Shown piece after piece: positions 6,769 to 64,000 of a stretch of 64,000 nucleotides of DNA. Each line of letters starts with the position of its first letter. The stretch's first letter is position 1. A model generated the notes under the pieces. It worked only from the letters and a program-made list of their open reading frames with translations, ran no database searches and was not told the DNA's origin. The stretch comes from Amoebidium appalachense (Eukaryota > Protista > Ichthyosporea): contig CAVNZM010000012.1 of assembly GCA_963693365.1 (NCBI GenBank), forward strand, positions 1,984,001 to 2,048,000, in the 5' to 3' direction. The position numbers were made by a program, and so were the translations under genes.

Positions 6769-6986
6769 CGGAGTTCAGGTTGGCACATTTTGGTTTAGGC
6801 GGCCAATAAGGACACAGAGATTAAGGATTTCGGTCCTCATTGGCCACAAGCGCACCCAGCATGTCGCCGCTGTGTACATAAGCATCCGCACACAGGCAAC
6901 ATCACACCAAGCAAACATGAGCCATACGTACACAGTTGAGGTGCACACCACAGTCACGTTCACCACACCCCCCAAACAACAGCAAA

Positions 6987-25716: not shown

Positions 25717-25816
25717 GGGGTAGTGGTGGGTCTGGAACGTGATGGTCTGTCTCTCCTCGTCCCAGCTCCCAAAGAAGAGGGGGTGCCCATGCTGTGTGGG
25801 GTGTCTGGGTTGCTTA

Positions 25817-27859: not shown

Positions 27860-27939
27860 GGTTGCACAAGTGTGCACGTTACTACATGACGTTGAATTTT
27901 TGTACGGTGTTTATAACGGTATGTGTGCCCACTACCACC

Positions 27940-44528: not shown

Positions 44529-45138
44529 TGTAAACATCTGTACACGCCGTACATGTTTACTATTACGAATATACTGTACATATCATAGTGATCACGTAGA
44601 TATTGTGTACATATGATCAGATCAATATCACACGCGACAGCCGCGGGCTGCGGCTCACGACTGAGCCGCGGCGCCGGCAATATGCAGTGGCCGTGCAGTC
44701 AGTATGAACCAATAGAATTCGAGAACCGCTAGGATAGGAATGCAAGTCTCATCCACTACGGAGGCGACATCTATAGCTAAACGAACGGAACCAATAAGGA
44801 AATCAGACCCAGTTGCATAAACCTAAACGGGCTTAAGTATTGACCAATCATTTGCCACAAAGTTATCCTTTTAGTTAGCTTCATGTTATTGGTGCACTGT
44901 GTGCACATAAAGACGACCGCACTCTTCTGACTGGTCAGAAGTCACGAAGGCATCAATGCCACCCATCCAGATGATCCGGAACCTGGGGGCTATATAAACA
45001 AGCCGTCCCAGTACGGGGGATCACTCTGAACGAGCACATTAAATAGTAACCTGGCCGCGTGTGCCTTACTACCCGTTCTCTGTCTTTATTCTGATTCAGT
45101 TGTTCTCTGCCTTATCCCAACTAGTTCAACTGTTTACA
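44529..45138 (+). repeat. 3' LTR (610 bp)
   Basis: Direct repeat of 7535-8144. Confidence 0.97.
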
Positions 45139-45143
45139 GGCAC

Positions 45144-45510
45144 CTACTTCAACGTGACGTTGGAGCTCCCCAACCCCCTTGGCCGCAACCCCTGCCTCTT
45201 CAAGCTGGGCAACAACGCTGCCTCCATCGACGAGTTTGTGGAGTTTATGAACTCCCAACGTGCCAAGTGCCGTGAGGTGACTGCCTGGGTGTCTGCAGCT
45301 GCCACCAGCGTCATCTACAACAAGAAGAACAACACTGTGCGTTCCAAGCTCGTTGCCCGCAAGGTTCAGGTGTTTGACTTAGATGGCCTGATGGAGCTGG
45401 CTGGTGGTGAGGGGGGCGAGGGGGAGGGGGGTGATGTAGACTTGGGGCAGGCTAAGCGTGCAGGCACGCCCATGCCCGGTAATGACGATGCCAAAATGCT
45501 CAGAATGTAA
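45144..45510 (+). pseudogene. Copy A ORF1, 3' part
   Basis: YFNVTLELPNP... matches 16066-16433. Confidence 0.9.
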
Positions 45511-45833
45511 TGACACACGACTGTATATTGAGAACATATTTGTCTACGGGTGATTGCCACGAAATAAACGGTCAAAAAACTTGTGTTTTTGGGGAAAAAC
45601 GAACACTGTGAGCTATGTGACCGACTTGACTTGTGGCGCAATGAGAGGGAGTGTCAAAGACTTGCGCAAGTATGAGCCGATGAAATTTTGCGAATTTATC
45701 TCCAGGAATGCCCAGCATGTCGTTTTTTCTTCTCTTTCCCTGTCTTTCTCAAAAAAAAACTTGAAAATCCTTTTCAATCATCTCTTTTCGTAGAAAAAAG
45801 TCTTTTAAAGTTTTTGTTACCGTAGTAGACAAA

Positions 45834-45878
<45 letters not shown>

Positions 45879-45986
45879 CTCGTTTCCTTTCGTTAGTTTT
45901 GTGAAAAAACTTGAAAATCCTTTTCAATCATCTCTTTTCGTAGAAAAAAGTCTTTTAAAGTTTTTTTGTTACTTAGACAAATCTTT

Positions 45987-46032
<46 letters not shown>

Positions 46033-46054
46033 GACTTAGGGTCAGAAAGCAATC

Positions 46055-47098
46055 ATGCCTCCTCGTCGTAGACAACCCACTTCTCGTTTCATGAGAAAGG
46101 CAAAAAGCCCAACCAAGTTTGACCAATTTTTGAACCTCTTTTGTGTTGCGTACGTGGCTGTTTTCAACGCAGCATACGAGTACATTCAGTACATCACAAA
46201 GGGTGATTGGGCCCAGCGCCCACGTTGTCCCAACCTGGTGGAGTGCTATCATAACTGGGCAGAGGCTGAGGAGACACTTATCGAGGCAAACGTTGCAGAG
46301 AAGGACGAGATTCTGGAACGTGAGCGTCTGATTAGTGCCATACAGATTGGCGTTGTGTCATGGTCATTCTCGCAGAAGGAGGCCCTACCGGGGGTTCTAA
46401 ACGAGGTTTTTCATACGGACGTGTTTAAGTGGGACTGCAAGGACGGGGTGTGGTCGGTCGGCATCGCTGTGCCTGTGTATGACACCGGTATGGATGATGG
46501 TTATGGCGAGGCCGAGTCGATCTTTAAAGACCGTGACGACACGTTCACTTTCACCCGCAAGTGCTTCGATTTCATGCAGGGGGTGGTCAACATACTCGAA
46601 CGGGCCGGGAAGTTAGATTTGATGCTACACCAACACGTCATCGACACCTACACCGACACCATGGATATTTGGGGAGCAGCATGCAAGTACAAAAAGTTTA
46701 TCAATGGAGAGTGGTTTGCCCCCGTCATACCCATGTACGACTTCTACCCGGCATCCAGACAGGAGAAACAGGTGGAATTGGGTAGAGAGACGGTCGAGAA
46801 GGTCATGGATGCCCTCGAGCTACTTACCCATGGACACGTTGCCTACCCCCGTGACATTATGGACCTGCTGAACGAATGCATCGGCATACCTCAGCTGTTT
46901 AGTGTGGTTTACGAGAGAGTCAGCAAGAGCACACGGTATGCTAAAAAACGCCCCAAATTCCAGAATTCTGTGATGAGAAAGACGGAGTATGTGTCGGTGT
47001 GGACCCTTATACTGGCAGCCCCACCCGAAAGCCCCAACGCACCCGCCGAGCGCCAACCCATCACACTGCAGAAATTAATGCTTAAAGATGGGGAGTAA
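46055..47098 (+). CDS. Copy A homolog of 16987-18030
   Basis: One amino-acid difference (T/A). Confidence 0.8.
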   Translation: MPPRRRQPTSRFMRKAKSPTKFDQFLNLFCVAYVAVFNAAYEYIQYITKGDWAQRPRCPNLVECYHNWAEAEETLIEANVAEKDEILERERLISAIQIGVVSWSFSQKEALPGVLNEVFHTDVFKWDCKDGVWSVGIAVPVYDTGMDDGYGEAESIFKDRDDTFTFTRKCFDFMQGVVNILERAGKLDLMLHQHVIDTYTDTMDIWGAACKYKKFINGEWFAPVIPMYDFYPASRQEKQVELGRETVEKVMDALELLTHGHVAYPRDIMDLLNECIGIPQLFSVVYERVSKSTRYAKKRPKFQNSVMRKTEYVSVWTLILAAPPESPNAPAERQPITLQKLMLKDGE

Positions 47099-47526
47099 GC
47101 ACACACACACACACACACACACACATGCACACATGCACATGCACACTTAAATCGTTGTCTTCTTAGGCACACACACGTGCAGGCACACGTGTGCAATGCA
47201 CCGCAGTAGTCTTGGGTTTGTACTCAGCTTGTTTTTCGTAAAAATAAAAGTTTATTTTTGCCGTCGATTGTCTTTGTAAAAAAGAAAAAACGTGGAAATA
47301 AAGGGCTCTGCCCATTGTCTTCACAAAAAAACGTGTCTATGGTCATGGACGAGCTGAGAGGGTAAAAAACGTATAAAACGTGCAAGTATAGGGCACAGCC
47401 CTGCACGGTCACCCCTAACCTAACCACTTAGGTAGATGACGTCGCTGTTCACAGTCTTGAGGAGGGAAGAAGTACGGGGCTTAGACACCTGGACCCCACC
47501 GTAGAAGTAGCGAGCACCGTGGGCCA

Positions 47527-48006
47527 TGTAAACAGTTGAACTAGTTAGGATAAGGCAGAGTACAACTGAATCAAAATAAAGACAGAGAACGGGTAGAAAG
47601 GCACACGCGGCCAGGTTGCTTTTACTATGGGCCGACTCAGTCTGTCTCAGACTTCACTGATGTGATCCCCGTACTGGGACGGCTTTGTTATATAGCCCCC
47701 AGGTTTCGGATCAAGGCCCAGGATTGGTTCATCCGCGGCCAGCGCGGGTGGCAACATGCCATTCGTGATTCTGGTGCGGTCCGAGCCAGTCAGACCTTTG
47801 TCCTATTTATGCAAACCTCTTATTGGTTCACTTCGTTTATGTGGTATGCAGCTGAAGAACCATATATGGTTCAATTCTTAGGTCAGAGTAAGTCCTATTG
47901 GTGCGGACATAATATTTATGTGATATTCATGACAAAGCACGAATCGTGTGGTAGTAGATCACATTCTTTAGTAAACATGTACAGTTCAGGTGTACAGTTG
48001 TTTACA
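47527..48006 (-). repeat. 3' LTR of non-autonomous element (480 bp)
   Basis: Direct repeat of 50602-51229 without the 148-bp duplication. Confidence 0.95.
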
Positions 48007-50601
48007 CTCCCCCCCTTGTCGGGAGCCTGGTGGTGTCGTTAGACAAGCAAACCACCAGGCTGAGAGGCGATAAACAACCTTCAGCGAGAATTCTTGTGTG
48101 TGCCGAGCTGCTGGACAGAACAGAGCAAGGACGGTGGAATAGAGTTGTGCACGTCTATGAGCACTTCTTCATTTGCCAAAACGTAAATTCATGCAGCATT
48201 CTTCTGTGATTTCATTTTCGTGGCGAAGATTGTTGCAGAGTGTGCGTGCGAATAATTCGCTAAGCCTTCGTCTCTGTGCTTGGCTTTTCTGTAGAAGTAG
48301 TATTTTCCTTTTTGGGAATTTTTCCTTTTTAGGATACTCCCGCAGATTCGTTTTCAATTGCGAGTAATTTGGTTGTGTGGATGAATGATCATACCAAACA
48401 TTCGATAATGAATATAACTCAAGCCTTAGGTCACTTCGTACTCAGGTAGTGGTGGATAGCTTCAAGGCTTAGCCACTGCTCCTTATCCCGGTTCTACCTT
48501 AAGACTGTAAGGCGAGTCACCATGGCCGGAAAAGCCACTTCTTTCATGAACAAAGAGCACTTCTTTCCTTTCAGCTTTAACCCTGCATCATCGGAGCCGG
48601 GAATAACATGAATAAAAATGCCCTAAGTGTTCTTCGTTGGGCGACATAAAGAAATATATCAGCCCGTCAGAACCAGTAAAAACCCGGTTCATAATTCATA
48701 AGAAGAGGGTAGGCAGAGCAAGTCTTCTTCAGAAAACACATGCTTCCATTCGTGAGCAGTTTTCGTATCCCATTTGCCAGCCATTTTCGTTGAGCAGGGG
48801 GATTCCAGGCATAATACATTCTTCTGGAGGCTTGGCCTAAAAAGAAAAGTCGTCGGAGTCGCCCTTTCTTTTGTAAGCAACTTCGTGAGCGCGCTTCGTG
48901 TTTTCATATCCTCCAGTGCAGGTCTGGATGGTGCCCCATCCTCTGCTTCATTTGTAGGTGGCCCTACTGTAGGTTCTGTTCGTTGTGTGGAATACCAAAA
49001 CCATTCGTATTCGTGGAACTGCTTTGTGCTGTGCTTTCTTTCGTGTTGGTGTTCATGAAGTTACCCCGTTCACACACCCTACTTCTTACATACATTAGAT
49101 GTAAGTAGCTGCCTGGTGAGTGTGTGGTTCGTGTTCGTGGCATTCTTCTGTTCCTTCGTGAGAAGAATATTCGTTTTAGCAGAGGTGCCCAATAAGGCAG
49201 CTTGTGGGGTTGTCTCCCGCATGTGCCCATTGGTGGGGTATGCACGTGCTAAATTGTTACAGTGTCATCATATTGCAAGGGAATAACATGGTCACCTCCG
49301 TACCAGGGCCTAGTAGGTACACATGATGGTCCGATGTGTTAGTCAACAACACCTTGCATTCGTATTCGTATTTGTCTTCCACGTCACTTTCTTCAGTAGT
49401 GAAGGAGGGTATTCGTAATTCGAAACTGAAAGGCTTCCAGCCAAAATACTGACACTGTATGATGGGGTTGTGAGGGAGCGGTGCCCATACCACATTCTTT
49501 TGTTCTGGTGGGGGTGTGCCGGCAGCTAGTGCAAGGCTTGACAGTGTAATTGGTATGTTACACCGTATTGCCACAGACGGGCATTCACCTTAAAATTCGT
49601 ACCCAACACCTTCTTTGTTTTTCACATGCATGAACAAAAGTTCTGCATCGACTTTATTACATGCCTTTTGTGCACCAAGAGTGCAAATTCGTTAGGGCGT
49701 GGCACCAGGAAGGGCCGCCATACATGAGTCAGGCATATGTTCGTAATGTGTTTAGGCATGCCAGCATACATTCATGCGCATGTTGTGCATCCTGGGCGCT
49801 AAACTATGGGGCATGCTGTATTCGAGAACAGCAAGGGATTCGAAGCATGCATGCAACACTACTTTCATAAGATCTTAGGTCCTACATGCTATAGCAACAG
49901 CGACTATCTTCTTCGTTAAGTGCATTTGTGCTGAAAGTGGCCGTGCATCTGGCTTGCGAGTGTGGACGTGCATGCGGTGGCATGGACACGATGGCAGTGT
50001 GCAATAGGGCAATGCACGCAAGGGCAACGGTTTTATTTTCTTCCTAACATAGAGGGGGCTGTGTGCATTGCAACCCAAGCAGTGTTGTGCATTCGTCCTT
50101 TCATTTTCGTATTTCCAGTTCATTTTGCTTTCGTTTTTCGTTTTTTGTCGTTTGATAACTTCGTTACTTCGTTTTGTTTTCGTGTTGCATTCATTTCGTA
50201 TTTCCTCTATGCAATCGTTTGTCGTTAATTCTTTATTTCATTGCGTATTCGTGATGGTTCGTTTTTCGTTGGTTCATTGCTTCGTTAGCAATTCTTTATT
50301 CGTTTGTTCGTGTATTCGTTGTTTCGTTGTGTATTCGTTTTTCTTCACATTTTTGATGTGTCGTAGCAAAAGAAGTTTTACATGCTTTCAATTCTTTCCG
50401 TGTAGGTGGGCTGGCCACTTCAAACTTGTAGGTGTATATATTCTAAGCCGGACAAGGAAAGATGTGCCTATCATCGGGGTAAAAAGGATTGTGATCGGCC
50501 ATGGGAGATTCTTGAGCTGATTGAAAGATGTGAGATTCTTGAACTGATTGAAAGATGTGAGATTCGAAGGATGCGAGATTCTTGAACTGCGCGGTCGCCA
50601 A

Positions 50602-51229
50602 TGTAAACAGTTGAACTAGTTAGGATAAGGCAGAGTACAACTGAATCAAAATAAAGACAGAGAACGGGTAGAAAGGCACACGCGGCCAGGTTGCTTTTAC
50701 TATGGGCCGACTCAGTCTGTCTCAGACTTCACTGATGTGATCCCCGTACTGGGACGGCTTTGTTATATAGCCCCCAGGTTTCGGATCAAGGCCCAGGATT
50801 GGTTCATCCGCGGCCAGCGCGGGTGGCAACATGCCATTCGTGATTCTGGTGCGGTCCGAGCCAGTCAGACCTTTGTCCTATTTATGCAAACCTCTTATTG
50901 GTTCACTTCGTTTATGTGGTATGCAGCTGAAGAACCATATATGGTTCAATTCTTAGGTCAGAGTGAGTCCTATTGGTGCGGACATAATATTTATGTGATA
51001 TTCATGAGCCAGTCAGACCTTTGTCCTATTTATGCAAACCTCTTATTGGTTCACTTCGTTTATGTGGTATGCAGCTGAAGAACCATATATGGTTCAATTC
51101 TTAGGTCAGAGTGAGTCCTATTGGTGCGGACATAATATTTATGTGATATTCATGACAAAGCACGAATCGTGTGGTAGTAGATCACATTCTTTAGTAAACA
51201 TGTACAGTTCAGGTGTACAGTTGTTTACA
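50602..51229 (-). repeat. 5' LTR of non-autonomous element (628 bp, with internal 148-bp tandem duplication)
   Basis: GAGCCAGTCAGACC begins at both 50858 and 51006. Confidence 0.95.
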
Positions 51230-52518
51230 GGCCATCTTGTTGTTGTTGTTGTTGTAGGTGATGTTTCTGTTGCAGCTGCTGCAGATGGTGTAGAGGGGGG
51301 CACGGTTCTCCTTGTGATCTGGGGCAAGCTCCGGGACAGACTTGCGCCGTGACGGGGCCTCCTTGGCAATGTTTTTCTTGATCAACCCTGCAAAGTGAAT
51401 CTTTTGACCTAAACCACACGCACGCTCCTCTGCAATAGTGCGCAGCAGGGCCTGCATTTCATGCAGGATATCCAGGGGAACCCCTTTGAAGATGGGTGTG
51501 GACTTTAACTTGGCAGCCTTGGCAGTGGCCACCATGGCCTGCAGGAATCCTACAAGAACATGGGCCAGGAGGTGCACAAGCTCGTCCTCACGGTAGGGAG
51601 ACACAGTCCCTGACTTGCACATAGCGGCAATGGGCTGCCAGCCGTCCTCTACCTGGTGCATGTACCTGTGGATGTAGTCGCCAACCAGCTGAGGATCTGT
51701 CTCGGCCTTGTACCTGATAGACCTGTCGTGCTCGTTGAACAGTGGCAGGAGGAGGTCTACCACAGCAGCCGCCACCCCCTTGAGCATGAGGGCGTTGCGG
51801 CACGCGAGTGTTAGCTTAATCGAATCGGTGTGCAAGTCTGCCAGGTCTGCCAACCCACGTACGTTGTCACGCAACAGTGCCTCAGGCAGCCACATCCCAA
51901 CAAAATCGTTGTGACCAGCGAAGCGTTTCTGGAAGTAGACTTTCCCCCCTGGGTTGTAACCAGCCTGGAAGAAGCCATCAACCGTGGCGGGATGGAGGTA
52001 GGCCGAGTTCTCCACAACACCGGGCTGTGCAGCATACCCCTCAGCCAGTGTGCGGTGGAGCTTGTAGAAGGGGTCAGGAACAAGGGCGGAAACATCTATG
52101 TCGGCCCAGGAGAAGGTGCGTAGATCATTGAAACAAGGATAGCCAAAGGATGTGACCATGGGTGTAGGTACAGAAAGGGCGGATGCTGCAGCAGCCTGAG
52201 CAACAGCTGTACCATTGCAAAGAGGGGGTAGGGGAGAGAGAGGGTTCATGTTTAAAAAGTTCGCTGTTTGCAAAAAGGCAGGCTAGAGTGGCTTAGAATA
52301 AAGGAAAAATGTTTGAAGAATGGACCGTTTGCAGGTGGTTTTTTGTGCCCTCCGGCACACATGCTGCCATTGCTCCAAACTTTGGTGACTCGCGTTGCAC
52401 TAGGCGGCCAATCAAAGCGCAGGAAGGCTACCAATGGAATGAAAGTCAACAAACCTTATTGGTTCCTCGCACCGCCCGCCAACGGTGTTTCCTGTGTGCA
52501 CTTACCATATATGGGTTT

Positions 52519-53133
52519 TCAATTAGCTCTGCGACCCGAGACGTGTGGCGGCCTGGCTGGTGGCCAGACGTAGGGTTTGCCACCCACAAGCACCTGTGCA
52601 CCGCCCCCTCCGCCCCCTCTCCACTCATAACCACCACCTGTGTGCGGGCGTGTACCCGTGGGCACACTGCCCCCACCACCACTACTGCCTGCAGCGTTGT
52701 ATGGACCATAACCCGCAGCATTCTGTGCAGTGTGTAGCATATAGTTACCCGCGTCCCTTGTGCCATTCCTCAGTGTCTTCCACGCGCTGAACGAGCCATT
52801 CTGGATCCCCTGACCCACATGCTGTGTGCCCTGCAGGGCGGCATCGCCTGTGGCACGTGCGGCCCCTTTGAGCCCCTTGAACGCTGTCCCCCCCACCTCC
52901 CCGGCCTTTTCTGCACTGTAGGTGGCTGCATCTGCTGCCTTGTTGTACATGTCGTTACCCACCCCCCTTGCTATGTCCCCCTTGTGTTTCCACGCATAAT
53001 ACCCCCCTGCCCCCAAGGCAGCACCGCCTGCCAGAGCCCCCACCCACTTAGCCACCTCTGACGCCTTGTTTGGTTGGTTTTGCACGTAGATGACGCGCGT
53101 GTTTCCGTTCCTGCCTCGCGATGACACACCCAT
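52519..53133 (-). CDS. Copy A Gly/Ala-rich protein
   Basis: Homolog of 19749-20363. Confidence 0.75.
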   Translation of the reverse strand: MGVSSRGRNGNTRVIYVQNQPNKASEVAKWVGALAGGAALGAGGYYAWKHKGDIARGVGNDMYNKAADAATYSAEKAGEVGGTAFKGLKGAARATGDAALQGTQHVGQGIQNGSFSAWKTLRNGTRDAGNYMLHTAQNAAGYGPYNAAGSSGGGGSVPTGTRPHTGGGYEWRGGGGGGAQVLVGGKPYVWPPARPPHVSGRRAN

Positions 53134-53202
53134 GGTGGTGGTGTGGCTTGCACTTTTACTTATGTGGGCATATTATTTTTTATTGCCAGAGTCATGTTCC
53201 TG

Positions 53203-53472
53203 CTAGCGCACGACCCTGCCATGTGCACGCCTGAGTGCTGCAAAGGTAGGGCGTCTCCGGGTACTAGGAGCACGGTTGCCTGCTGAGGAGCCAGCCACAG
53301 TGGTTGGTTTAAGGAAAGAAGGGTGGCGTGTGTTGCGTGGACATATACTGTCTGCAATGGATCTTGCCATGGCCTGCTGGCCATAAAAGCTTAAGTCTGT
53401 GCGCGTGGCGTTTGACGTGCGCTCAGTGAGGGGTTGAAATTGGTCATTGAGCACAACTTGGTAGGTGGCCAT
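53203..53472 (-). CDS. Copy A small basic protein
   Basis: Homolog of 20433-20702. Confidence 0.6.
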   Translation of the reverse strand: MATYQVVLNDQFQPLTERTSNATRTDLSFYGQQAMARSIADSICPRNTRHPSFLKPTTVAGSSAGNRAPSTRRRPTFAALRRAHGRVVR

Positions 53473-53522
53473 GGTGGTGTGCTGGTACCTTATACACTCT
53501 ACCACACATTTTTATGATCTGG

Positions 53523-54068
53523 CTAGAATTCCAACCCCAGCACACCCCCTGTCTTTGAGCTGCGCGGGTATGTCTCAGGCACCCACGACACTACACGTGG
53601 GCCACCCACTTGCTGGGGCTCTGTAAACAGAAGCAGGCACACGCCCTCTGGTGATGGTCTCTTGAACCCCTCAAACTTGACCCTGCCCCGCAAAATGCGC
53701 ACCTCTGCAGCGTACCTAAACGCCAGGTCATGAAACCAGCGTGCCTCTGTGCGTGCAGGTACAAGCAGTACGCTCTTTCTACCCTTTGACATGTACATCT
53801 GTATGGCCTTGCGTATGAAGGGGGAAATATCGGAGAACGGTGGGTTGACATAGCTGATTTTCTCGCTGGACCACACACTGTCATCTGTGAGTGCGCAAGG
53901 GTCCTCCCCCTCTCGCCAGGTGATGGGGCAGGGGTCATTGAGTGTGCCAAACTCTTTTTCAAGCGCTTCCAGCAGCCATGCAGGCGTCTGCACCTTGTCT
54001 GTGTCCACACCGGTCCTCCTCTTGTCCACCGTCGACTTGTACACTCCGCAGCAACTCCCAAGCCCCAT
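53523..54068 (-). CDS. Copy A Dam-type N6-adenine methyltransferase
   Basis: NPPF intact; homolog of 20753-21298. Confidence 0.9.
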   Translation of the reverse strand: MGLGSCCGVYKSTVDKRRTGVDTDKVQTPAWLLEALEKEFGTLNDPCPITWREGEDPCALTDDSVWSSEKISYVNPPFSDISPFIRKAIQMYMSKGRKSVLLVPARTEARWFHDLAFRYAAEVRILRGRVKFEGFKRPSPEGVCLLLFTEPQQVGGPRVVSWVPETYPRSSKTGGVLGLEF

Positions 54069-54385
54069 GATCACACAGTCCCGCACCTGTGTGCTGTGAA
54101 AATTTCGCGGGCCACGGGCCGGGCCGGATCCTGCCGGGTCCGGGTCGGAGCGGGCCGTAAATGGGTCGGGTGGTCCGCAAAGGGCAGATTCGGGTCAGGA
54201 CCAGTGGTCCGCACATGGAGGATTAGCCTGATTTGGCAGGTGACCAAATAGGGCTAGTTTTGACGGTTGCGGGTTGGTGGGGCGTCGCCTGTTTGCGCAA
54301 ACATTCCATTAAACCAATTTAAAACATAATTGCGGTCGCTCATTGGTGGGGAGTCTCTGTTTTTTTCAAGACATGGGAGGCTGCC

Positions 54386-55704
54386 CTAACGGCGTGCGTG
54401 CCTTTCACTGCGACGCAGACCCACTTGCTCCGGTTGATGTTCAAACGCGAGTTTTTTCCGTTCCCGTGCCTTGCGTTCTTCTTTTTCCTTTTGGATTTGT
54501 CCACGTGTGCCCTTTCGGGGCACCAGCTCACGGCCTTCAAACGCCAGCTCTTCCACGGCTTTTTCCTTGGCTGTCTCCTTACGGGCTTTACGCATCTCGC
54601 TGCTGTGCGGTACGGGCACACTGGTAGGTGGTACCTTCTTCAGCATGGTGTCTGGCCAAGCGTAGCGTAGGCCTGGCGTGTGTCTCCTCATCTCCCCTGT
54701 GGCTGCGTTGCGTAGGGCCCACCCACTTGCATCCTTGTAGGCAAGCGTGTAGACGTCCTTAGACCAGTTTCTGCCTTCTTTTTCAAACGGTCCCTTTGGT
54801 TTCTTGAGTGCACGTACGTGCACACCCTCTGTGTGGCCCATCCTTTCACGTAGCTTACGCTTCTGTTTCCTGTTCTCCAGCCACGTGTTGATGCTGTTCC
54901 ACCGTTCTGCCCGCTGGGTCATGCTGTCGGGGTCTCTGCCTATGGAACCATGGTACGTATCGTTGTAATCCTCCAGCACGTCTTCCAACCCTTCCCCTAT
55001 CCACTTGCCCGTGTTGTTGGTCTCCATGTACTTGGTCAGTCCTTGCTTTAGAGTACGGCGGAACCGTTCCACCATGGCTACATTGCGTGGTTTTCTGCCT
55101 GGTTTTTGCGGGAGAATGGTGATGTCATTGTCGCCGTAGTACTTTTTCATGGTGTTGCTAAGAAACTCCGTGCCCTTGTCCGTAAAGATTTGCTTCACCT
55201 CTGTAGGTTGTAGGTTTTCCTCCCCCTCGTTGCTTTCGTCCTTCATCTCCTTGATTGTGTGTAGGGCCTTATCCACTGCCCTCCTCATCTCTGGCCCGTT
55301 GCTGATGGTGAGGTGCTCACTCTTCCCGGTCCCCGAGCTCTTTGTTTTTATGGGTACGACTGTTGCTTGCCGCGTGTTCATGTCAATCACACTCAATCCC
55401 CCCTTGTACCCCCTGTTTGCCTTTGAGTAACGTGGCATGAAAAACAGGTCGGCTGCCACACTGTTTGGCCGTGCTGTTGTGGTGAGGTAGTCCTTCCTCT
55501 TAATCCTATGGGGGGCCATCACCTCCGTGAGGGACTCCTGCAGCCCCGAGTGTCTCCTGGACAGGTAGGCACGCACGGCCGGTTGCCCCACCCTCTTGTC
55601 TTTTGCTTTTGCACGATGCCATAGGGCTTGTACGGAGGGGGGAGCTTGAAGGTGTCGTAGGTTTCATCAATCACCTGCTCAATGTCCTTCCCGTGGGCCA
55701 CCAT
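54386..55704 (-). pseudogene. Copy A RVE integrase with 1-bp frameshift near 55640
   Basis: G6 run versus G7 in copy B (could be a homopolymer read error); also ERFH changed to ERFR. Confidence 0.85.
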
Positions 55705-55725
55705 GGTTGTTTCTTGTGCCTCCTA

Positions 55726-56316
55726 CTAGTCGGTCGACACTTTCTCCTTTGGGATTCTTCTTGGTCTGCGTGCAGCTGTGGTCTTTTTGGCTGTCTTTTT
55801 GGCCTTGGGGGCAGGGGGTGGTTGTAGCTTGATGGGGTGGTCGGGCATGAGTGGCCGGGGGTGCAATGGTGTGATGTCCTGCTCCGTGTCTGTGCTTGCG
55901 GGTACATCCTCATCGTCGTCGAGTAGTGTGAGCACGGAGGGTTGTTGCTCTTGGAGTGGTGGGGGAGAGGCGGGAGGGGTGGGGAAGGCAAAGAGGGGCT
56001 CATAGGGGGGTGTTGGGGAGAGGGCGTCGTGGGGAAAAGGGGTGTCTGGTCGGGGAAAGTTGGGGGGAAGAGAGGGGAAGGGGAAGGGGGTGGGGTACTC
56101 TTGCAGTAGCACGTCCCTTATGGTGCTTGCATGCCCTTTCAACCACTCTGTGAAGGATTTCCACTCTAGCCCCTGCTCTGTGCACACTAGCATGTCCCCT
56201 TCCTTGGGTCGGTATCTAGGAAAGACAAGGGTATAGGATTCGGTCGATGAGTGGGCTTGCACACCCACGTACTCTCCCGATCGCGTGAGCAGATTGAGTC
56301 TGTGTACGTTAGACAT
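55726..56316 (-). CDS. Copy A homolog of 22957-23547
   Basis: Near-identical protein. Confidence 0.7.
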   Translation of the reverse strand: MSNVHRLNLLTRSGEYVGVQAHSSTESYTLVFPRYRPKEGDMLVCTEQGLEWKSFTEWLKGHASTIRDVLLQEYPTPFPFPSLPPNFPRPDTPFPHDALSPTPPYEPLFAFPTPPASPPPLQEQQPSVLTLLDDDEDVPASTDTEQDITPLHPRPLMPDHPIKLQPPPAPKAKKTAKKTTAARRPRRIPKEKVSTD

Positions 56317-56362
56317 GGTGGTTGTTTGCCTTTATTGTAGTTGCACATTTTTTCGCACCGTG

Positions 56363-57121
56363 ATGGTACCAGACAACTGGAGAATGATTGTCAACCTGGC
56401 TCGAATCTACTTTACGACATGCTGTGCTATCATGTGTGTTGCATTGGTTGCTGCATCCTACGGCACAGTCACAATGATACCAGAGTTCGCAAAACGTACA
56501 TGCATGTTCTGGCTCATCATCCTGCCCCTCACAGGTGTGGTCATGTGCCAAGCACAATGGGTGGCGTATGCCTGGCTCGACGTGGACACCCACCCTGACG
56601 TGGCCGGCCACTGTGTGATGTGGGCGCCCTACTGGCTGGGCTCGTGGCTGTATGTGGCCTCCCCCCTCGCCTACATGCTGGCAGCAGCGTGCTGGGCCCG
56701 ATCCATGCGTGTGACGACCACGTTGTTCTTCCCACGGGCCGTGGCGTACATGGTGTGTGCCTCCCTCCTCCCCCTAAGTGCCCTCTACGGCATGACGTGT
56801 GTGTTTGAACCGTCGGTGTTTGGCTACGTGTTTCTTGTGTCGAGGGGCGTGCTGGCGTGTGCCACCCTCGTCTGTGCACGGTACATGCTCTCCCTGTCCG
56901 TGCCCGTGCTCACCAGGAACATTGTGCTGTGCGTGTGCGTGCATGCAGGCCTTGCACTGGCGGGCATTGTGTTTGACGAGCTCCACTGGAACCTGTTGGA
57001 GTTTGGGTTTTTGGAGAACGGGTTTCTGACCACCTTGGGGTACACACTGCTCGCCTGCTGCCTGCTTGCCCTCTGGTACCTCATACTCTACTGCATGGAC
57101 GTGCTGGGCCCCTACACGTAG
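56363..57121 (+). CDS. Copy A 7-TM membrane protein
   Basis: Same protein as 23594-24352. Confidence 0.75.
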   Translation: MVPDNWRMIVNLARIYFTTCCAIMCVALVAASYGTVTMIPEFAKRTCMFWLIILPLTGVVMCQAQWVAYAWLDVDTHPDVAGHCVMWAPYWLGSWLYVASPLAYMLAAACWARSMRVTTTLFFPRAVAYMVCASLLPLSALYGMTCVFEPSVFGYVFLVSRGVLACATLVCARYMLSLSVPVLTRNIVLCVCVHAGLALAGIVFDELHWNLLEFGFLENGFLTTLGYTLLACCLLALWYLILYCMDVLGPYT

Positions 57122-57123
57122 TT

Positions 57124-58485
57124 TTAGGGCATGGTCCATTTTGGCCCGTTGTCCCAGTCACCCACATCCACGACGTTGTGGTCGGGCCCGTACTTACCCT
57201 GGTTGTTCTTCCAGGCCTCGAGCTCGGCGGCGTAGTTGTCGTAGTCGGTGGCGGCCCGGCGTGCCTTCCTCTTGCCCATCTTGCCAATGCCCGTGCCTAG
57301 CTTCCCTCCGTACCTCTGTGCGAGTTTGCATGCCCCCTTGCCGACTGCAGACACGGCATCGCCGACCACAGGTATGAACCCCATCAGGTCCATCACACTC
57401 TCCACAATGTCCAACGGGCTTGGTTTGAACGTTTCCTCTTCGACGAAGTCTCTCAGCACGGGCACAAAGTTGATCTCCCTCGGCCTCACCATGAACCACA
57501 GGTCGTTTTCCTGCATGCTCTGTGGCACCTTTCCGTTGGGCATGTGTGCGCGTATGGTGTTGAGGTACTGTTTGAGGGCCGAGCCCACCGGTTCCCATAG
57601 CTGGTCCACCTCGTCCCAGGGGTCGGGGGAAACGGCTTCGTTGTAGTTTAGACGTAGCACCCGGCTTGTCACCCTGTACGTGAGCTCCATTTCCGGGTGG
57701 GGTAGTGACCCTTTGGGGCCCGAATACACGCTCTTGTTGGTCCCCCCCAAATCACCGACGGCGCTGACGGTGGTTTCGTATTGAAACATGACGCTGGGAA
57801 ACTTGTAGTGGACCTTGTAGTCAAGTTTCACGTAGCCCATGCGTGTGGTGGTGTAGTCGTTGGGGCCCCTGTTGGAGAAGTGCAGGAGGCCCGGCCTGAA
57901 GTACCGTGTCTTGGTTGTGCCCGTTATGGTCTCCTGCTCCTGTGCCCACACCCTACTCTTTATCCAGTTTGTGAGAACCTTGTCGTCGTAGGGGAACTTT
58001 CCGCCCCCGGGCAGGTCGGGGTTGTCCTCGTTGATGTAGTCCATGTGCCAGTCGTTGTTGGTGTCGTGCAGGTCCGTGTGGTCAACCTCTGTGTTGATGA
58101 TGGGCACGTCGTGCAGGTACTCGGCCTTCTCGACGACGACCTGGTTGAGCTCGTACAGCTGGCTGCTGTCTAGGTTGGCGGTGAGCTTGCCGGCAATGTG
58201 CTGCTGCAGCGGCTCCCCCCGGGGCACGGTGCCCATGACAATGTCGTACGTCATGAACGGTAAGACCCTGCTGATGCCCTTCTTGTTGTAGGCGTAGTTG
58301 TTGTTGAGGGGGTACGTGTTTGATGATATGACGGCCTCCATGGTTGGGGTGTAGGGCCAAAGGGTGGCGTGTCTTGCCTCGTCCGTTTCGTTTTCGTAGA
58401 AGTTGGTGTACGTGTGGCCATCGTCCTTGTCCTGCCCGTTTATGCCGACATGGTCGAACTTGAAGCATGCGGTTCGTGCAGACAT
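57124..58485 (-). CDS. Copy A homolog of 24355-25716
   Basis: Near-identical; motif reads DLMGFIPVVGDAV. Confidence 0.8.
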   Translation of the reverse strand: MSARTACFKFDHVGINGQDKDDGHTYTNFYENETDEARHATLWPYTPTMEAVISSNTYPLNNNYAYNKKGISRVLPFMTYDIVMGTVPRGEPLQQHIAGKLTANLDSSQLYELNQVVVEKAEYLHDVPIINTEVDHTDLHDTNNDWHMDYINEDNPDLPGGGKFPYDDKVLTNWIKSRVWAQEQETITGTTKTRYFRPGLLHFSNRGPNDYTTTRMGYVKLDYKVHYKFPSVMFQYETTVSAVGDLGGTNKSVYSGPKGSLPHPEMELTYRVTSRVLRLNYNEAVSPDPWDEVDQLWEPVGSALKQYLNTIRAHMPNGKVPQSMQENDLWFMVRPREINFVPVLRDFVEEETFKPSPLDIVESVMDLMGFIPVVGDAVSAVGKGACKLAQRYGGKLGTGIGKMGKRKARRAATDYDNYAAELEAWKNNQGKYGPDHNVVDVGDWDNGPKWTMP

Positions 58486-59129
58486 GGGGTAGTGGTGGGT
58501 CTGGAACGTGATGGTCTGTCTCTCCTCGTCCCAGCTCCCAAAGAAGAGGGGGTGCCCATGCTGTGTGGGGTGTCTGGGTTGCTTATCATGGGAAACTTGG
58601 GGAAGTCGGGTCGTTCGGGCAGGGCCGTCTTGATCTGTCTGTTTATGGTACGCACCGACGTCCACCCGTCGGAAAACAGAAAGTTTGGCCGGACCCACAT
58701 GGAGTAGGGAAATATCGGGTCGGGGGTTAGGCCCTCCAGCCTCAGCAGGCGACGTACAATGTTGTCCTCGAAGTTCTCCTTGTCGTCCCCCCACAGCACC
58801 TTTACTATAGTGTCCAAGGTTTCCTTCATGGTGTCGTAGACGGTGTGCTCGTCCCAGTTCTTGACCATACCCTTTTCCAACAGCACCACCCTCCTCTCCA
58901 GGTCGTCCAGCCGGTCGGTCACCTCCGCCACGGGCATGAAGGTACCGGCCCCCACCTCGTCCACCTTCAAGAAGGCAGGCCCCCCTCGGGGGAGGCTTTT
59001 GGGCAGCTCGAGGACGTAGCTGTCGTGCCCGTGCCCGCTCGAATCGGGTCGGATGCCGACGTAGTAGTCTGCGCTCTTCGGGCCCACCAGGGAGAGCCCC
59101 TGGGCAACGTGCCACGCTAAAGCGCTCAT
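58440..59129 (-). CDS. Copy A homolog of 25817-26359 (extended by a 1-bp indel)
   Basis: Matches copy B up to ERPD, then reads in a different frame. Confidence 0.7.
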   Translation of the reverse strand: MSALAWHVAQGLSLVGPKSADYYVGIRPDSSGHGHDSYVLELPKSLPRGGPAFLKVDEVGAGTFMPVAEVTDRLDDLERRVVLLEKGMVKNWDEHTVYDTMKETLDTIVKVLWGDDKENFEDNIVRRLLRLEGLTPDPIFPYSMWVRPNFLFSDGWTSVRTINRQIKTALPERPDFPKFPMISNPDTPHSMGTPSSLGAGTRRDRPSRSRPTTTPCLHEPHASSSTMSA

Positions 59130-59158
59130 GGTGGGTTTACTAGTGTGTTAGAAATAAT

Positions 59159-59218
59159 TTAGTTTCTCGGTGCCAGTAGGGGAATTCCCTGGGAAACGTG
59201 CCACTGCAAATGACTCAT
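59159..59218 (-). pseudogene. 19-codon remnant (MSHLQWHVSQGIPLLAPRN*) of a divergent homolog of the downstream gene
   Basis: 10/19 identities to MSALAWHVAQGLSLVGPKS; CACCATG start; absent from copy B. Confidence 0.85.
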
Positions 59219-59260
59219 GGTGAGTCTTAATACCCCGTAGAGAAAAATTCACCTTGGCAC

Positions 59261-60688
59261 CTAGGGTAGCCAGCTACCTGTCTCGGTTGCATATGGGTAG
59301 TCGGCAAAGTAGTTTGGATCGTGGAAGTTGAGGTCTGTTCTCGGAATGCTAGATTTGTTGACATATTCGCTAAAGTGGGGGTACCTGGCAATCACCTGCA
59401 CGTTGAATGCATTGTAGCCTGACGCATTGCCAAAGCTATAGGTGTCAGAGGCTCTATTGGTCACCCTTATTCGTAGCCAGAAATCTGTCCCGTTTCCTGT
59501 GGGCTGTAGTTCCCCCTCGATCAGACCACACCCTATGGCAAACGGGTAATGGCCGTTCGGACTAACAGGGTCCACACAGGCCATGGACACCCGACCTTCC
59601 TGCACCATGAACTGGAATTGTTTGTTGCCGAGCGCCTTCCAAAACTCGTGCACGATGAGCAGTTCGGCCCCTGGCTGTGTCATCCACCCAAGGTTGATGT
59701 TTGGGTCGGTGCCCGACTTGAGGCTAAAAATGTCACCCCATGCAGCGGCTGTATCGCCCAAGAGGGAGCTCCACGTTCGGTTGGTAATGTGGTACACCTT
59801 CACTGCCTTGTACGCTGGGCCGGTCCTCTGCCTCACCCACGCTTCATCGGCCAGCCTGTTGGTGTTGGCAGGGAGTCTGTTCTTGATGGCCGTCATGTCC
59901 GTTGTGAGTGTACCGGTGGTAGTCTTGAGGCCGGCAATGTCCGTGTTCTGTGTGGTGTTGACCGTCACTGCGCCGTTGGCCGTGTTGAGGGCGGTGGTGG
60001 CCTTGCCCTCCACTGCCGTCAGCCTCGTGTCCAGGCTCCCCGTGGTGGTCTTGAGGCCGGCAATGTCCGTGTTCTGTGTGGTGTTGACCGTCACTGCGCC
60101 GTTGGCCGTGTTGAGGGCGGTGGTGGCCTTGCCCTCCACTGCCGTCAGCCTCGTGTCCAGGCCCCCCGTGGTGGTCTTGAGGTCGGCAATGTCCGTGTTC
60201 TGTGTGGTGTTGACCGTCACTGCGCCGTTGGCCGTGTTGAGGGCGGTGGTGGCCTTGCCCTCCACTACCGTCAGCCTCGTGTCCAGACCTCCTGCCGTGG
60301 TTTTGAGCCCGACAATGTCCGTGTTCTGCATGGTGTTCACACCCTCCACGGCCGTCATTCGGGTACCCAGACCTTCCGTTGTGGTTTTGAGACCGGCAAT
60401 GTCCGTGTCCTGTGTGGTGTTTACTTCTTCTACGGTAGCCACCCTGGCCCCCAGTGCCTGCACGGTTGCATCGGACGGCACGTCGGCAGCGTCCACAAAC
60501 GACATGTTGCCGTTGGGGTCACATGCCATGTAGGCAAATGTAGCCGGCCCGGTCAAGGGCAATGTCAGATCGTATGCATCGTGTTTGTGGCCTGTTGTGT
60601 TGGCCACCACCCCCACGTAGTAGCCGTCTTTTCGTCGGTTCGTGAGTGCAAGCCCGTCAGCCACGGTCCAGTTGAGTGATTTGGGCAT
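59261..60688 (-). CDS. Copy A fiber/spike protein with alternative head domain, 475 aa
   Basis: N-terminus and shaft match copy B; the C-terminal ~215 aa are homologous but strongly diverged. Confidence 0.85.
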   Translation of the reverse strand: MPKSLNWTVADGLALTNRRKDGYYVGVVANTTGHKHDAYDLTLPLTGPATFAYMACDPNGNMSFVDAADVPSDATVQALGARVATVEEVNTTQDTDIAGLKTTTEGLGTRMTAVEGVNTMQNTDIVGLKTTAGGLDTRLTVVEGKATTALNTANGAVTVNTTQNTDIADLKTTTGGLDTRLTAVEGKATTALNTANGAVTVNTTQNTDIAGLKTTTGSLDTRLTAVEGKATTALNTANGAVTVNTTQNTDIAGLKTTTGTLTTDMTAIKNRLPANTNRLADEAWVRQRTGPAYKAVKVYHITNRTWSSLLGDTAAAWGDIFSLKSGTDPNINLGWMTQPGAELLIVHEFWKALGNKQFQFMVQEGRVSMACVDPVSPNGHYPFAIGCGLIEGELQPTGNGTDFWLRIRVTNRASDTYSFGNASGYNAFNVQVIARYPHFSEYVNKSSIPRTDLNFHDPNYFADYPYATETGSWLP

Positions 60689-60768
60689 GGTTGCACAAGT
60701 GTGCACGTTACTACATGACGTTGAATTTTTGTACGGTGTTTATAACGGTATTTGTGCCCACTACCACC

Positions 60769-61827
60769 ATGGACCAAGCCCCAACACACCTCGTAGTCAT
60801 GCAACACGTCGGTGACTTTGTGCAAGGCCAGAAGGACCCTGCCCCTGTGGAAATGAAGGCCATGCTGTCTCCCCCGATAGGGTTCCAGCAGAACACGTCG
60901 TTGGGGGTCAAGTGGGTGAGCACCATGACCACCCCCACCACCTTCTACTACCCGTACCCCCGTGATGAGTGCTATGTCAACATGGCCCGCCAGCTCCCGA
61001 CCCCGGGAGGGGGGTGGGGCTCACCCACCGACATCCAGCGCCTGTACTTTGAAGCCACACCCGACGAGTTGCAAATCGAACCTGGCAAGAAGGTGTGGCG
61101 TACCATTCCCCTGTGGGAGTTAGGGGTGAGCCCGACGGGTGCCTTTGTGGGTCGTGGGAGCAGCAACGAGTTATCCAGAGACCTGGCGAGTACTGAAAAC
61201 GTCTTTGGGTCGTATATGGGGCATTGGTTGCAGTTCCTGCTGGATAGGTACCTTACGAGCGTACTTGGCAACGACAAACCTGCCGACGGGGAAGTGGAGT
61301 TGAGCTACGACGAGAAGACCGGTCGGATTAAGTTCGTAAACCGTGCACCCGATACCAGGTACCTCATGTGGTTCGACTCGCCGGTGGTGGCTGCTGCAGC
61401 CGGTATGAACGTGGGGGATAGCCTGGTTAGCTCAAAGCCCGGCAGGGACGAGACCACGGCCCCTAATGTTGGGTGTTTCCCCACCCACTTCCTCCTCGAG
61501 CTTCACGGTGTGAACTCAGAGTCGTCCGTGAGTATAGCCAACGCCGACGTCAAGTTTCAGTCCTCCTACCCCAGCAAGGACGTGCTGGCCGTCATTCCTG
61601 CCTTTCCCAACATCACCGTCCCGTTCTTTGACAACGGGGCAGTCATCGAGCTACCACTCGACGTCAGCACGCACATCAACTCTCTCACAGTGAGGCTGGT
61701 GAGCTGTTACGGCAACGTTGTACGGATGAGAGGTGACGTGACCTTTTTATTGTGCCTGAGGCGTATTCCCAGACCCACAGGGTCCACGGTCGTCCGACCC
61801 ATGAGCAAGCCACAACGGTTCGGCTAG
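60769..61827 (+). CDS. Copy A minor capsid (penton) protein
   Basis: Homolog of 27940-28998, one substitution (Y/H). Confidence 0.8.
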   Translation: MDQAPTHLVVMQHVGDFVQGQKDPAPVEMKAMLSPPIGFQQNTSLGVKWVSTMTTPTTFYYPYPRDECYVNMARQLPTPGGGWGSPTDIQRLYFEATPDELQIEPGKKVWRTIPLWELGVSPTGAFVGRGSSNELSRDLASTENVFGSYMGHWLQFLLDRYLTSVLGNDKPADGEVELSYDEKTGRIKFVNRAPDTRYLMWFDSPVVAAAAGMNVGDSLVSSKPGRDETTAPNVGCFPTHFLLELHGVNSESSVSIANADVKFQSSYPSKDVLAVIPAFPNITVPFFDNGAVIELPLDVSTHINSLTVRLVSCYGNVVRMRGDVTFLLCLRRIPRPTGSTVVRPMSKPQRFG

Positions 61828-61873
61828 GTGTTGCATATTTTCACCACCACTCAATGAAGACATTACTACCACC

Positions 61874-62113
61874 ATGAATTTTCAACAAGGCACGGGCTAT
61901 ACCAACGACTCCGAGTACTGGCGACCGCCACGGCCGGACCGAACGGCAGCACCACGCAACCACACCCTTATTGTCCACCCCAACGAGCACTGGGATAGGT
62001 TTCAGACGGTGTTGAACATTGGTCGTGCTGCCCAAAACGTGGCCTACGTCGGCAGCAACATCAACTACATGCAGAGGTCCTTCAGGCGGGGTGGGGGTCG
62101 GTCGTACCCCTAG
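61874..62113 (+). CDS. Copy A homolog of 29045-29284
   Basis: Identical protein. Confidence 0.55.
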   Translation: MNFQQGTGYTNDSEYWRPPRPDRTAAPRNHTLIVHPNEHWDRFQTVLNIGRAAQNVAYVGSNINYMQRSFRRGGGRSYP

Positions 62114-62403
62114 ATGTTGGTCTCCCCCTCCTGTTTCTGTATGTGGGCAAGCATGCGGGCATCCAGCTGGGCCTCGTACTCCAGCACCTTCCTCAGCTCC
62201 TCCTGCCGGTCCACCGGCACCTTCTTCTTCAACTGCCGGAACTTTTTCTCGATTTTGTTTTCGGGCTTCTTCCCTTCCGTGTTGCCGGCCGGGTCAAAAT
62301 GTTTGTCGGTGCCGTGGCGTATGTAGAACTGCAAGTAGTCGTCAAAGGTGAAGGGTGACGAGTATGCCGACGGCAAATTCTTCATGTTCTTCGGGGTGGC
62401 CAT
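62110..62403 (-). CDS. Copy A homolog of 29281-29574
   Basis: One substitution. Confidence 0.6.
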   Translation of the reverse strand: MATPKNMKNLPSAYSSPFTFDDYLQFYIRHGTDKHFDPAGNTEGKKPENKIEKKFRQLKKKVPVDRQEELRKVLEYEAQLDARMLAHIQKQEGETNI

Positions 62404-62444
62404 GCCTGCATGTAGCCTAGCTACTAGTGGTATGTGTGAATTTT

Positions 62445-63068
62445 TCACCACGAGATGAGGTTGGCAATGTGGTCACTGTAACTACGCTGCGGGGGAGGGG
62501 GCTGCTGTGATGCTGCCTGTGTGTGGTACGTGCCGTAGCCCGTGTGGGGCATGCTGTGACGTATCGGTTGAGGCCCGAAGCTGCCCGGTGCACCCATGGG
62601 GTGTGGGGGTGGGGGTGGGGGCACGTAATAGTGCTCATAGTACGGGTTTTACGGGTTGTCATACCCGTCACTCTCCTCGTAGCTGTCCTCCTCTTCATAG
62701 GTCACCCGTGCCAAGGGCTTTCGTGGGGCCTTCTTCTGCTTTGGCCGGGGGGCCTTTGGGGGTGCTACCAGTACCGGTGCTGCTGCTGGGGGTGGGGGGT
62801 CGGCTGGGCGGGTCTCCAGCACCTGCAGCTTCTGCTCAAGTTCACGGATATAGTCCTTGTTCCTACGCATGCGTTCCACCCTTGTGCTCCTACCCTTCTC
62901 CAAGGCCTCCAGCTGCCGTGCTGTGGGTTGCCGTTTGGCCCTTGCCGCGTTGCCGGCTTCCAGCACCATGGGGTCCACACCCATACCGGTGTTGGTGGTT
63001 TCGTTGGACACCGGTTGGTCGGCCTCACCGTCCGACATGCGCTCGATTTGGTTCTCGTCGGTTGACAT
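62445..63068 (-). pseudogene. Copy A homolog of 29616-30239 with premature stop at 62649
   Basis: TAC changed to TAA relative to copy B. Confidence 0.75.
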
Positions 63069-63164
63069 TGTTGGTGTTACCAATAGGGACACATTTTTTC
63101 CAACGTTGGGCGGCGTACATACGTCCAAAAAATGTGTGCCCACTATCAAACACGGTCAACCAAG

Positions 63165-63401
63165 ATGGTCGGCACAACGTCCAAGAGCGCGTCCGACACG
63201 GATGCCGAGCCGTGGCAGCACGCGTGCGACTTCTGTGGGCACTGGTTCCGGTGTGCCACGCAGGAGGAGGGGCCAGGCTGTGACTTTGACTGTGGGTGCA
63301 CCATGACGTGGCTGGGGGACGAGCCTATGTACCTCTGCAGTTTCAAGTGCCTCGACGAGTTTACCGTCTACAACGTGCAGATCGACAGCTGCCGTCATTA
63401 A
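63165..63401 (+). CDS. Copy A small Cys-rich protein
   Basis: Homolog of 30333-30569. Confidence 0.6.
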   Translation: MVGTTSKSASDTDAEPWQHACDFCGHWFRCATQEEGPGCDFDCGCTMTWLGDEPMYLCSFKCLDEFTVYNVQIDSCRH

Positions 63402-63429
63402 TTTTAGCCACCCTACACTGAGTGACACC

Positions 63430-64000
63430 ATGCACCCTACCCCACCCATAGCCGTCAACCCCTTGCCGGCACCACTGTCGGTGGAGCACATTCCGATGAC
63501 GTGTGACACCAAACTGAACGTGCCCTACCCCCTCATGGACAACGTGTTCTTCTTTTTGCTTATTGGCCAGCCTGGTTCTGGCAAGTCCAACCTGCTCGTC
63601 AACCTCATTGCCCGGGAGGGCGAGTTCTACAATAAACAGTTTGACCGTGTGTACATTTTCAGCCCGAGCATGCACACCCTCGGCACGGCCCTGAAAATTC
63701 CCAGGGCCCGCCTGCACCAGGACGTCACCTTCCTCCCCGAGATTCTCAAACTGTCCCTCCAACACAAGAAGGTCAACCCAAATTACCGGATGTTGTTGGT
63801 GTTCGACGACATGTCCCATATTTTCCGAAAATCCGGCAACCTCCGTGAATTTGTACGTATGGCACAGAACCGACGACACATTGGTGTGTCGGTGATGATG
63901 GTGGGGCAGAAATTGAACAAGATCCCCCTTGAGCTACGTAGCCAGGCCGATGCCTTGGCCCATTTTAAGAACACCAACAACACCGAGCTCAAGGTGTTGA
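63430..64000 (+). CDS. Copy A packaging ATPase (runs off window end)
   Basis: Homolog of 30598-31341; GQPGSGKS intact. Confidence 0.93.
   Translation, partial: MHPTPPIAVNPLPAPLSVEHIPMTCDTKLNVPYPLMDNVFFFLLIGQPGSGKSNLLVNLIAREGEFYNKQFDRVYIFSPSMHTLGTALKIPRARLHQDVTFLPEILKLSLQHKKVNPNYRMLLVFDDMSHIFRKSGNLREFVRMAQNRRHIGVSVMMVGQKLNKIPLELRSQADALAHFKNTNNTELKVL

Follow-up and report, generated by a model that had tools for sequence, protein, structure and literature searches.

A truncated next-gene start behind a fiber-like gene as the probable scar of a captured head cassette in a Polinton-type virus

The window analyzed here, that is, the whole 64-kb stretch of DNA, contains two nested copies, A and B, of one ∼29-kb Polinton-type virus (Table 1). 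Copy B, whose terminal inverted repeats have 460-nt arms that are 100% complementary and which is flanked by its 5-bp target duplication on both sides, is housed by a Ty3 element (LTRs at 7535-8144 and 44529-45138, with 2 differences in 611 columns). The Ty3 element in turn lies within the near-identical copy A, so that 6307-64000 forms a triple nesting. It follows from this arrangement that copy B inserted here after copy A, and the near-identical terminal repeats of all the nested elements indicate that the insertions are recent. Copy A also carries a second LTR-bounded insert (47527-51229) with a 5-bp duplication, of which 48395-49464 is an inverted, diverged (74-76%) fragment of the Ty3 pol (11116-12639), with related LTR ends. 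Outside the swapped fiber head described below, the alignment of A with B has 66 substitutions over 15,465 columns (99.6% identity). Small clusters of these substitutions (4 in 36 nt at 57343-57378 and 4 in 115 nt at 52555-52669) are possibly short conversion tracts.

Table 1. Positions in the window of the virus copies, the fiber-like gene and the parts of the putative scar
Feature	Position	Strand	Remarks
Copy B, complete Polinton-type element	14841-44201		29.4 kb; terminal inverted repeats, 5-bp target duplication
Copy A, main block	51230-64000		continues past window end
Copy A, further blocks	6307-7534 and 45139-47526		flank the Ty3 element
Fiber-like gene of copy B, 493 aa	26378-27859	-	last bases are the 13-mer
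Fiber N-terminal part, common to A and B	60302-60688	-	first ∼70 aa paralogous to next-gene N-terminus
Three 126-nt shaft repeats, copy A	59924-60301	-	predicted homotrimeric coiled coil
A-type C-terminal head (probable imported part)	59261-59923	-	divergent from B head
42-nt donor-type spacer	59219-59260	-	own AT-rich box, CACC before ATG
19-codon stub MSHLQWHVSQGIPLLAPRN plus stop	59159-59218	-	ATG at 59218, stop 59161-59159
13-nt putative remnant AAATTATTTCTAA	59148-59160	-	identical to end of B-type fiber gene
Resident spacer before next gene	59130-59147	-	same in copy B
Third-allele segment	59043-59134	-	16 substitutions in all four bridging contigs; copy A equals copy B there
Resident next gene	57124-59129	-	single ORF in homolog P0001 (633 aa); frame broken in window

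Searches of the element's proteins against Pfam identified a protein-primed family B polymerase (37973-43531; PF03175, E 4.4e-37), an A32-like packaging ATPase (30598-31341; PF04665, E 3.9e-9), VLTF3 (PF04947, E 8.4e-12) and a Dam methyltransferase (PF05869, E 8.5e-16). An integrase candidate (21616-22935) matches rve_3 below the cut-off (E 0.005) and a PHROG transposase (E 1.3e-6), and the 5-bp target duplication fits a DDE enzyme as the integrase of copy B. The candidates for the double jelly-roll major capsid protein and the penton (31354-33102 and 60715-61827, respectively) were picked by size and position only; Pfam, PHROG and PDB gave no match for them, and a structure model reached a pLDDT of 27.2. 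The capsid candidate has a single homolog (P0015, 54%), and a related-locus scan with it returned 0 loci. A comparison of 58 proteins (56 window ORFs and 2 homologs) with Pfam, whose sensitivity is limiting for adenain-like cysteine proteases, found no protease family outside the Ty3 pol. Because no adenain-like protease was matched, we do not class the virus as an Adintovirus or group 1 Maverick-Polinton (the animal type), taking the family definitions from the accessible parts of bioRxiv 10.64898/2026.06.19.733378 and PMC8502044. Endogenous ∼30-kb "adintovirus" elements have been described, in the accessible text of PMC11244446, in the ichthyosporean protist Amoebidium. Judged by gene content and not by sequence identity or polymerase clade, the window virus shares with them VLTF3, the Dam methyltransferase, the family B polymerase, a length of ∼30 kb and terminal repeats, and the Amoebidium elements likewise comprise several co-resident clades with TE insertions. 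The same text reports that the CGC/GCG context is widely methylated in Amoebidium and, as far as it is accessible, contains nothing on fiber genes or on recombination between clades. In the window, CGC/GCG is depleted in the virus DNA (14841-44201; observed/expected 0.32) and CGT is not (1.11), which is likely a footprint of context-specific host methylation. Taken together, the gene content and this depletion point to a protist as the host.

The gene next to the penton candidate is likely a fiber gene, as suggested by an N-terminal domain shared with a second gene, heptad repeats, a variable head, the neighboring penton candidate and a predicted trimer. Its first ∼70 aa are paralogous to the N-terminus of the next gene (38% identity over 68 aa, E 3e-13 in a pairwise comparison). 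This ∼70-aa domain, common to the fiber (60620-60688), the next gene (59060-59129) and P0001, is a candidate capsid-anchoring domain of no known family. Between the divergently oriented fiber and penton-candidate genes lies a single AT-rich box (60715-60760; 27886-27937 in B), which, from its sequence and position, may serve both directions. The three shaft units of copy A are alike (118-125 of 126 nt), whereas in copy B the 3' part of unit 2 and unit 3 diverge (103-108 of 126). In copy A, units 2 and 3 each open with 77 nt that equal the beginning of B unit 2 and finish like unit 1; the A head begins in register with a shaft repeat. The A and B heads have 41% amino acid identity over 217 residues, and the head is a putative receptor-binding module.

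When the last repeat and the head were modeled in three copies, the score was 0.87, against 0.00 for the best of 3 controls, on a scale whose mark was met by 21 of 30 proteins solved as one-chain pairs and by 0 of 23 single chains (17 of 29 and 0 of 30 for eukaryotes), a calibration outside which three copies fall. Its runs share at least 51% of contacts at a pLDDT of 44-45, with confident contacts in residues 2-77 (the shaft) only, and a coiled coil may score well because the predictor has learned from solved examples. The shaft has a weak PDB match to the tail needle gp26 (E 0.11). For the head, there was no family match in Pfam or PHROG and no PDB match, and its single-chain model has low confidence (pLDDT 31.5). 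Pfam detected no Peptidase_S74, laminin G, collagen or adenovirus fiber domains in the fiber-like protein. A homolog search with this protein gave 12 matches, the 5 examined aligning through shaft-like repeats only, and 3 related loci matching the fiber were dropped as alike only in the shaft (26-29%).

The frame of the next gene is broken in both copies at short homopolymers (58545-58600 in A and ∼25780-25830 in B). Contigs from sequencing runs X14 and X16 differ in length at 58545-58600, and the breaks may reflect either decay or sequencing error. Yet the gene is a real conserved ORF, as shown by the single frame of P0001, whose identity is 41% with the N-terminal frame and 35% with the C-terminal one. 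P0001 is the true ortholog among the 2 matches of a HMMER library search; the other, P0002, is a repeat protein and a spurious match. A related-locus scan with the next gene returned 0 loci, and neither donor nor resident next-gene proteins were found among 840 candidates of 125-401 aa. An AT-rich box stands 30-45 nt before the ATG at 9 of 20 element gene starts compared with 2.2% of random places, the motif having been chosen post hoc, so that the p value is inflated. The box of the next gene lies in the last fiber codons of B; A keeps all but its first base, and the box truncated in this way fails to match the chosen motif.

In copy A, the fiber stop (59263-59261, minus strand) is followed by the donor-type spacer, the stub and 13 nt of fiber end, a layout that the earlier note had described and that is present to the base. 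The 13-mer occurs exactly 2 times in the 64 kb, behind the A stub and at the end of the B fiber gene, where it makes up the in-frame last codons and stop (26390-26378). Two bases of the stub's stop codon are already the opening of the 13-mer, and copies A and B are identical again from exactly 59160/26390 onward. Of the 127,882 19-mers in the six-frame translation of the window, those at the two resident next-gene starts score 61 against the stub (BLOSUM62) and the best unrelated 19-mer scores 30; the stub agrees with the resident start at 39/57 nt and 10/19 aa. The paralogous fiber start scores only 26, and an origin of the stub from a fiber paralog was rejected (24/57 nt, 6/19 aa, and a continuation, described below, that fits the next gene). 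These similarities suggest that the stub is likely the beginning of the next gene as the donor lineage carried it. Exact stub patterns had 0 matches in viral contigs and metagenome contigs.

We examined contigs of 8 out of 24 sequencing runs (X1, X2, X5, X7, X13, X14, X16 and X17), and what we say of these runs rests on the contigs and differences listed. One X7 contig (record 22; 326 nt, depth 51) aligns to 59163-59293 with 13 mismatched and 2 gapped letters, which makes it ∼89% identical to the A fiber end, spacer and stub. At least 50/56 nt of the stub are identical, the spacer part has several differences and a 2-letter insertion, and on the fiber side 9 loose letters, read by eye, give the same three residues as A with three synonymous third-position changes. 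Past the stub, the contig has 184 letters unlike the window, and the first 30, which are visible, keep the stub frame open for nine more codons without a stop. Compared by eye, this continuation matches the resident next gene at 22/30 bases (codons 19-29) and 7/9 residues (codons 20-28), with chance values of 3e-8 and 6e-8; 5 of the 8 base mismatches are at third positions, and the paralogous fiber start matches at 3/9 residues. The earlier note had derived the cassette from a divergent sister virus with the same gene order and suggested looking for a second virus family in which the stub reads on. The in-frame continuation, over the 30 of 184 letters visible, indicates that such a donor-type lineage exists, and its ∼89% identity to the cassette makes it a sister of the donor and not the donor itself. 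Among the contigs listed, it was found in 1 of the 8 runs, and its overlap with the A head is limited to the final 14 codons; no contig listed for the 8 runs contains the rest of a donor-type head, and neither donor protein nor donor DNA was found in protein, viral or metagenome collections. A 180-nt contig of X16 (record 22; 59191-59370, 1 difference), which ends inside the stub, could be a closer donor relative.

The scar itself is spanned by single contigs in X1, X2, X5 and X7 (4 of 8 runs, 3 samples, among the contigs listed), which equal the window at every base between 59135 and 59263. In the same four runs, intact B-type fiber ends join at 59160 or 59157. No contig covers 59131-59190 in X13, X14, X16 and X17, a hole that proves nothing. 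Further variants include an A-like head that departs from the window at 33 letters and by 6 gaps within 59624-59900 (X1 and X7), a truncated B head joined directly to the next-gene ATG (X13, X14 and X16) and an A-head derivative joined to the next-gene ATG in X16 and likewise in X14, where the intervening part is not covered. In X13, X14 and X16, a high-depth family (59130, 58883) combines the truncated B head with a further internal deletion in the next gene, and its loose end at 58883 resembles, by eye, sequence near 58230-58260. These high-depth derivatives are possibly a non-autonomous lineage.

We consider it quite probable that the stub joined to 13 B-type fiber bases behind the A head is the scar of a captured putative receptor-binding cassette. 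Two sister viruses would have been co-replicating in one cell, and the left crossover would have taken place within the homologous shaft repeats, where it is not placeable to the base. That this crossover was homologous follows from the A units being built from parts of B units and from the head being in register. At the right junction, the stub end and the replaced B sequence have no shared bases, making the join near-blunt as seen in the window and, presumably, with respect to the true donor as well. Both junctions are thus of the types that the earlier note had assigned to them, the left one within the 126-nt shaft repeats and the right one without usable homology. On the donor side, the right join would lie 42 nt and 19 codons past the fiber gene, and on the recipient side 13 nt before the fiber stop. 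Homology to the donor type reaches 59163 and identity to B sets in at 59160, so that these two boundaries are within 2 nt of each other. A recombinant of this kind would have survived because the exchange spared the next gene of the recipient together with most of the AT-rich box upstream of it, and selection to keep this putative promoter may explain the 13-nt remnant. A microhomology join at AAATT was rejected, since A has five extra bases before AAATT, which leaves a near-blunt join unless the true donor had a different sequence there. We also rejected a scenario in which the A locus is older and a B head arrived at the same base by coincidence, since this would need two independent junctions within 2 nt. 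The capture would have been followed by a second event, a homologous patch or crossover in the 26 identical bases at 59135-59160, which likely accounts for the two next-gene-start alleles behind the same scar.

These alleles complicate the direction of the exchange. All four bridging contigs carry a third allele of the next-gene start, which spans its first 29 codons (the X2 record covers 10 of the 16 changes) and whose changes include one upstream base, six third-position and seven amino acid changes, with no stop. At least two events must therefore have shaped the A type. A further contig (X16 record 20) ties an A-type head to the third allele across a deletion, with the stub absent, and no contig among those listed combines the A head with a B-type next-gene start, as the window does. 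This combination may be a low-copy recombinant lost in contig simplification, the oldest recombinant form or a polishing chimera. Three histories fit these data: (i) the donor cassette entered the B backbone and the next-gene start was patched later; (ii) the capture took place in a third lineage with a B-like fiber end, and the composite then moved to the B backbone; or (iii) the capture took place as in (ii), but the third lineage owns the backbone and the B segment is a later import. In all three, a B-like fiber end preceded the A head here, since donor identity ends where B identity begins. The conclusion of the earlier note that the B-type head is ancestral consequently stands for this fiber end and, given the third allele, is not established for the present head of copy B as the ancestor on the shared backbone. 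For that backbone, the proposed direction holds in histories (i) and (ii) and fails in (iii), and we favor it modestly.

History (iii) is accordingly the most serious alternative, and we regard it as plausible, if the less probable direction. The scar would then be native to the third lineage, and copy B would have imported its last shaft repeats, head and next-gene start later through two homologous crossovers, making its present head derived. The third allele as the rule among A types (4/4 bridging contigs listed plus X16 record 20) and the odd last shaft repeat of B, next to three A units that are alike, speak for this history, and both ends of the full difference (in the shaft repeats and at ∼59043) lie in homologous sequence. 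Against it, the 26 bases at 59135-59160 are identical to B beside a 17%-diverged segment (0.007 if unconstrained), which fits a later patch on a B-derived scar and speaks for history (i). GC3s is 0.65 in the A head (p 8e-6) and 0.72 in the B head (p 0.02), each compared with 0.80 in the capsid candidate and next gene, and 0.64 in the fiber N-terminus common to A and B; the two heads do not differ significantly (p 0.10), so that GC3s leans only weakly toward B as native. B-type ends also have the higher contig depth (B/A 48.6/20.5 in X1, 374.9/118.7 in X5 and 1670.8/359.7 in X7), depth being no copy number. Finally, the B fiber stop is followed by CACAC with the AT-rich box embedded in the last codons, mirroring the ATPase-to-capsid-gene junction, which makes the B fiber end look native.

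The stub is likely a functionless passenger of the capture. Its intact ATG context, its own AT-rich box and its unchanged state in four runs would also suit a sequence under selection, which could act as an upstream ORF that tunes the next gene or encode a decoy peptide from the N-terminal domain that the two genes share. However, the whole A cassette has 1-3 differences in the bridging contigs, so that invariance fits recency, and the A-head derivative in X16 record 20 has the stub deleted; we therefore hold such selection to be improbable. Still less credible is an origin without any donor, in which the resident start was duplicated locally long ago, or a second fiber paralog was once present, and the stub is what decay has left of it. 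The paralogous N-terminal domain of the fiber and next gene does show that tandem paralogs arise in this module, but the stub is far closer to the contig that continues as a next-gene ortholog (at least 50/56 nt) than to the resident start (39/57 nt), it is without decay in four runs, and B identity begins where donor identity ends. The condition under which the earlier note would have given up its reading, namely that only such a duplication and no donor-type gene exist, is contradicted by the X7 contig, which continues as the next gene. That the copy A junction is an assembly chimera is the least believable reading of all, because single contigs bridge the scar in 4 runs from 3 samples, even though no listed contig has the A head with a B-type start, both copies have homopolymer frame breaks, and a chimera may apply to copy A at 59043-59134 through polishing with reads of the commoner B type.

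The probable capture is a known kind of process, receptor-module exchange, in a new setting, a Polinton-type virus; adenovirus fibers undergo the same kind of receptor-domain exchange. In phage tailspikes and fibers, as described in the accessible part of PMC10408124, the C-terminal receptor domain is exchanged on a conserved anchor. As in those tailspikes, the locus described here combines a conserved N-terminal anchor and an exchanged C-terminal domain in the most variable gene of a conserved synteny, and homology on one side aids recombination. Unlike in phages, the virus is a eukaryotic integrating one, and the non-homologous junction overshoots into the next gene, leaving a stub. The phage paradigm concerns receptor exchange, whereas the heads were compared here by their sequences, and their receptor specificity is putative. 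In Polisuviricotina, recombination at the module and sub-gene level has been reported for polintons, PLVs and virophages (bioRxiv 10.64898/2026.10.13.758929). That work, in its accessible text, deals with replicase modules at deep distances and does not mention breakpoints, receptors or fibers, whereas we describe a recent exchange in a structural gene with its junctions and donor lineage visible. Fiber proteins of PLVs have been cataloged (PMC12220804), and "Fiber" ORFs of MELD viruses have been named (PMC8502044). According to the accessible parts of these texts, such fibers resemble the protein described here in being modular and likely homotrimeric, with repeats and a terminal head, but the head in the window is, unlike those cataloged in PMC12220804, of no known family. 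We found no report of fiber-head exchange in such elements, in a literature search that covered subscription journals little.

Deep gene trees, chiefly of replicases, have already shown that polintons and PLVs are mosaic. The exchange described here is recent and lies inside a structural gene; its two junctions and the piece left behind are visible, and sequence data from the same host group contain an extant sister of the donor. With at least three types of head, three next-gene starts and recurrent deletions ending at the ATG, this 1-kb stretch of an otherwise 99.6% identical backbone may be a hypervariable tropism cassette. We speculate, tentatively and with more doubt than conviction, that endogenous viruses residing in one host genome repeatedly swap fiber heads, for which that genome would serve as a permanent store of alleles. 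Two natural heads on one backbone lend themselves to a comparison of what these viruses bind, and to the question whether the viruses enter cells on their own. If such a store exists, Polinton-type viruses would have a receptor-switching system that draws on silenced relatives of their own.
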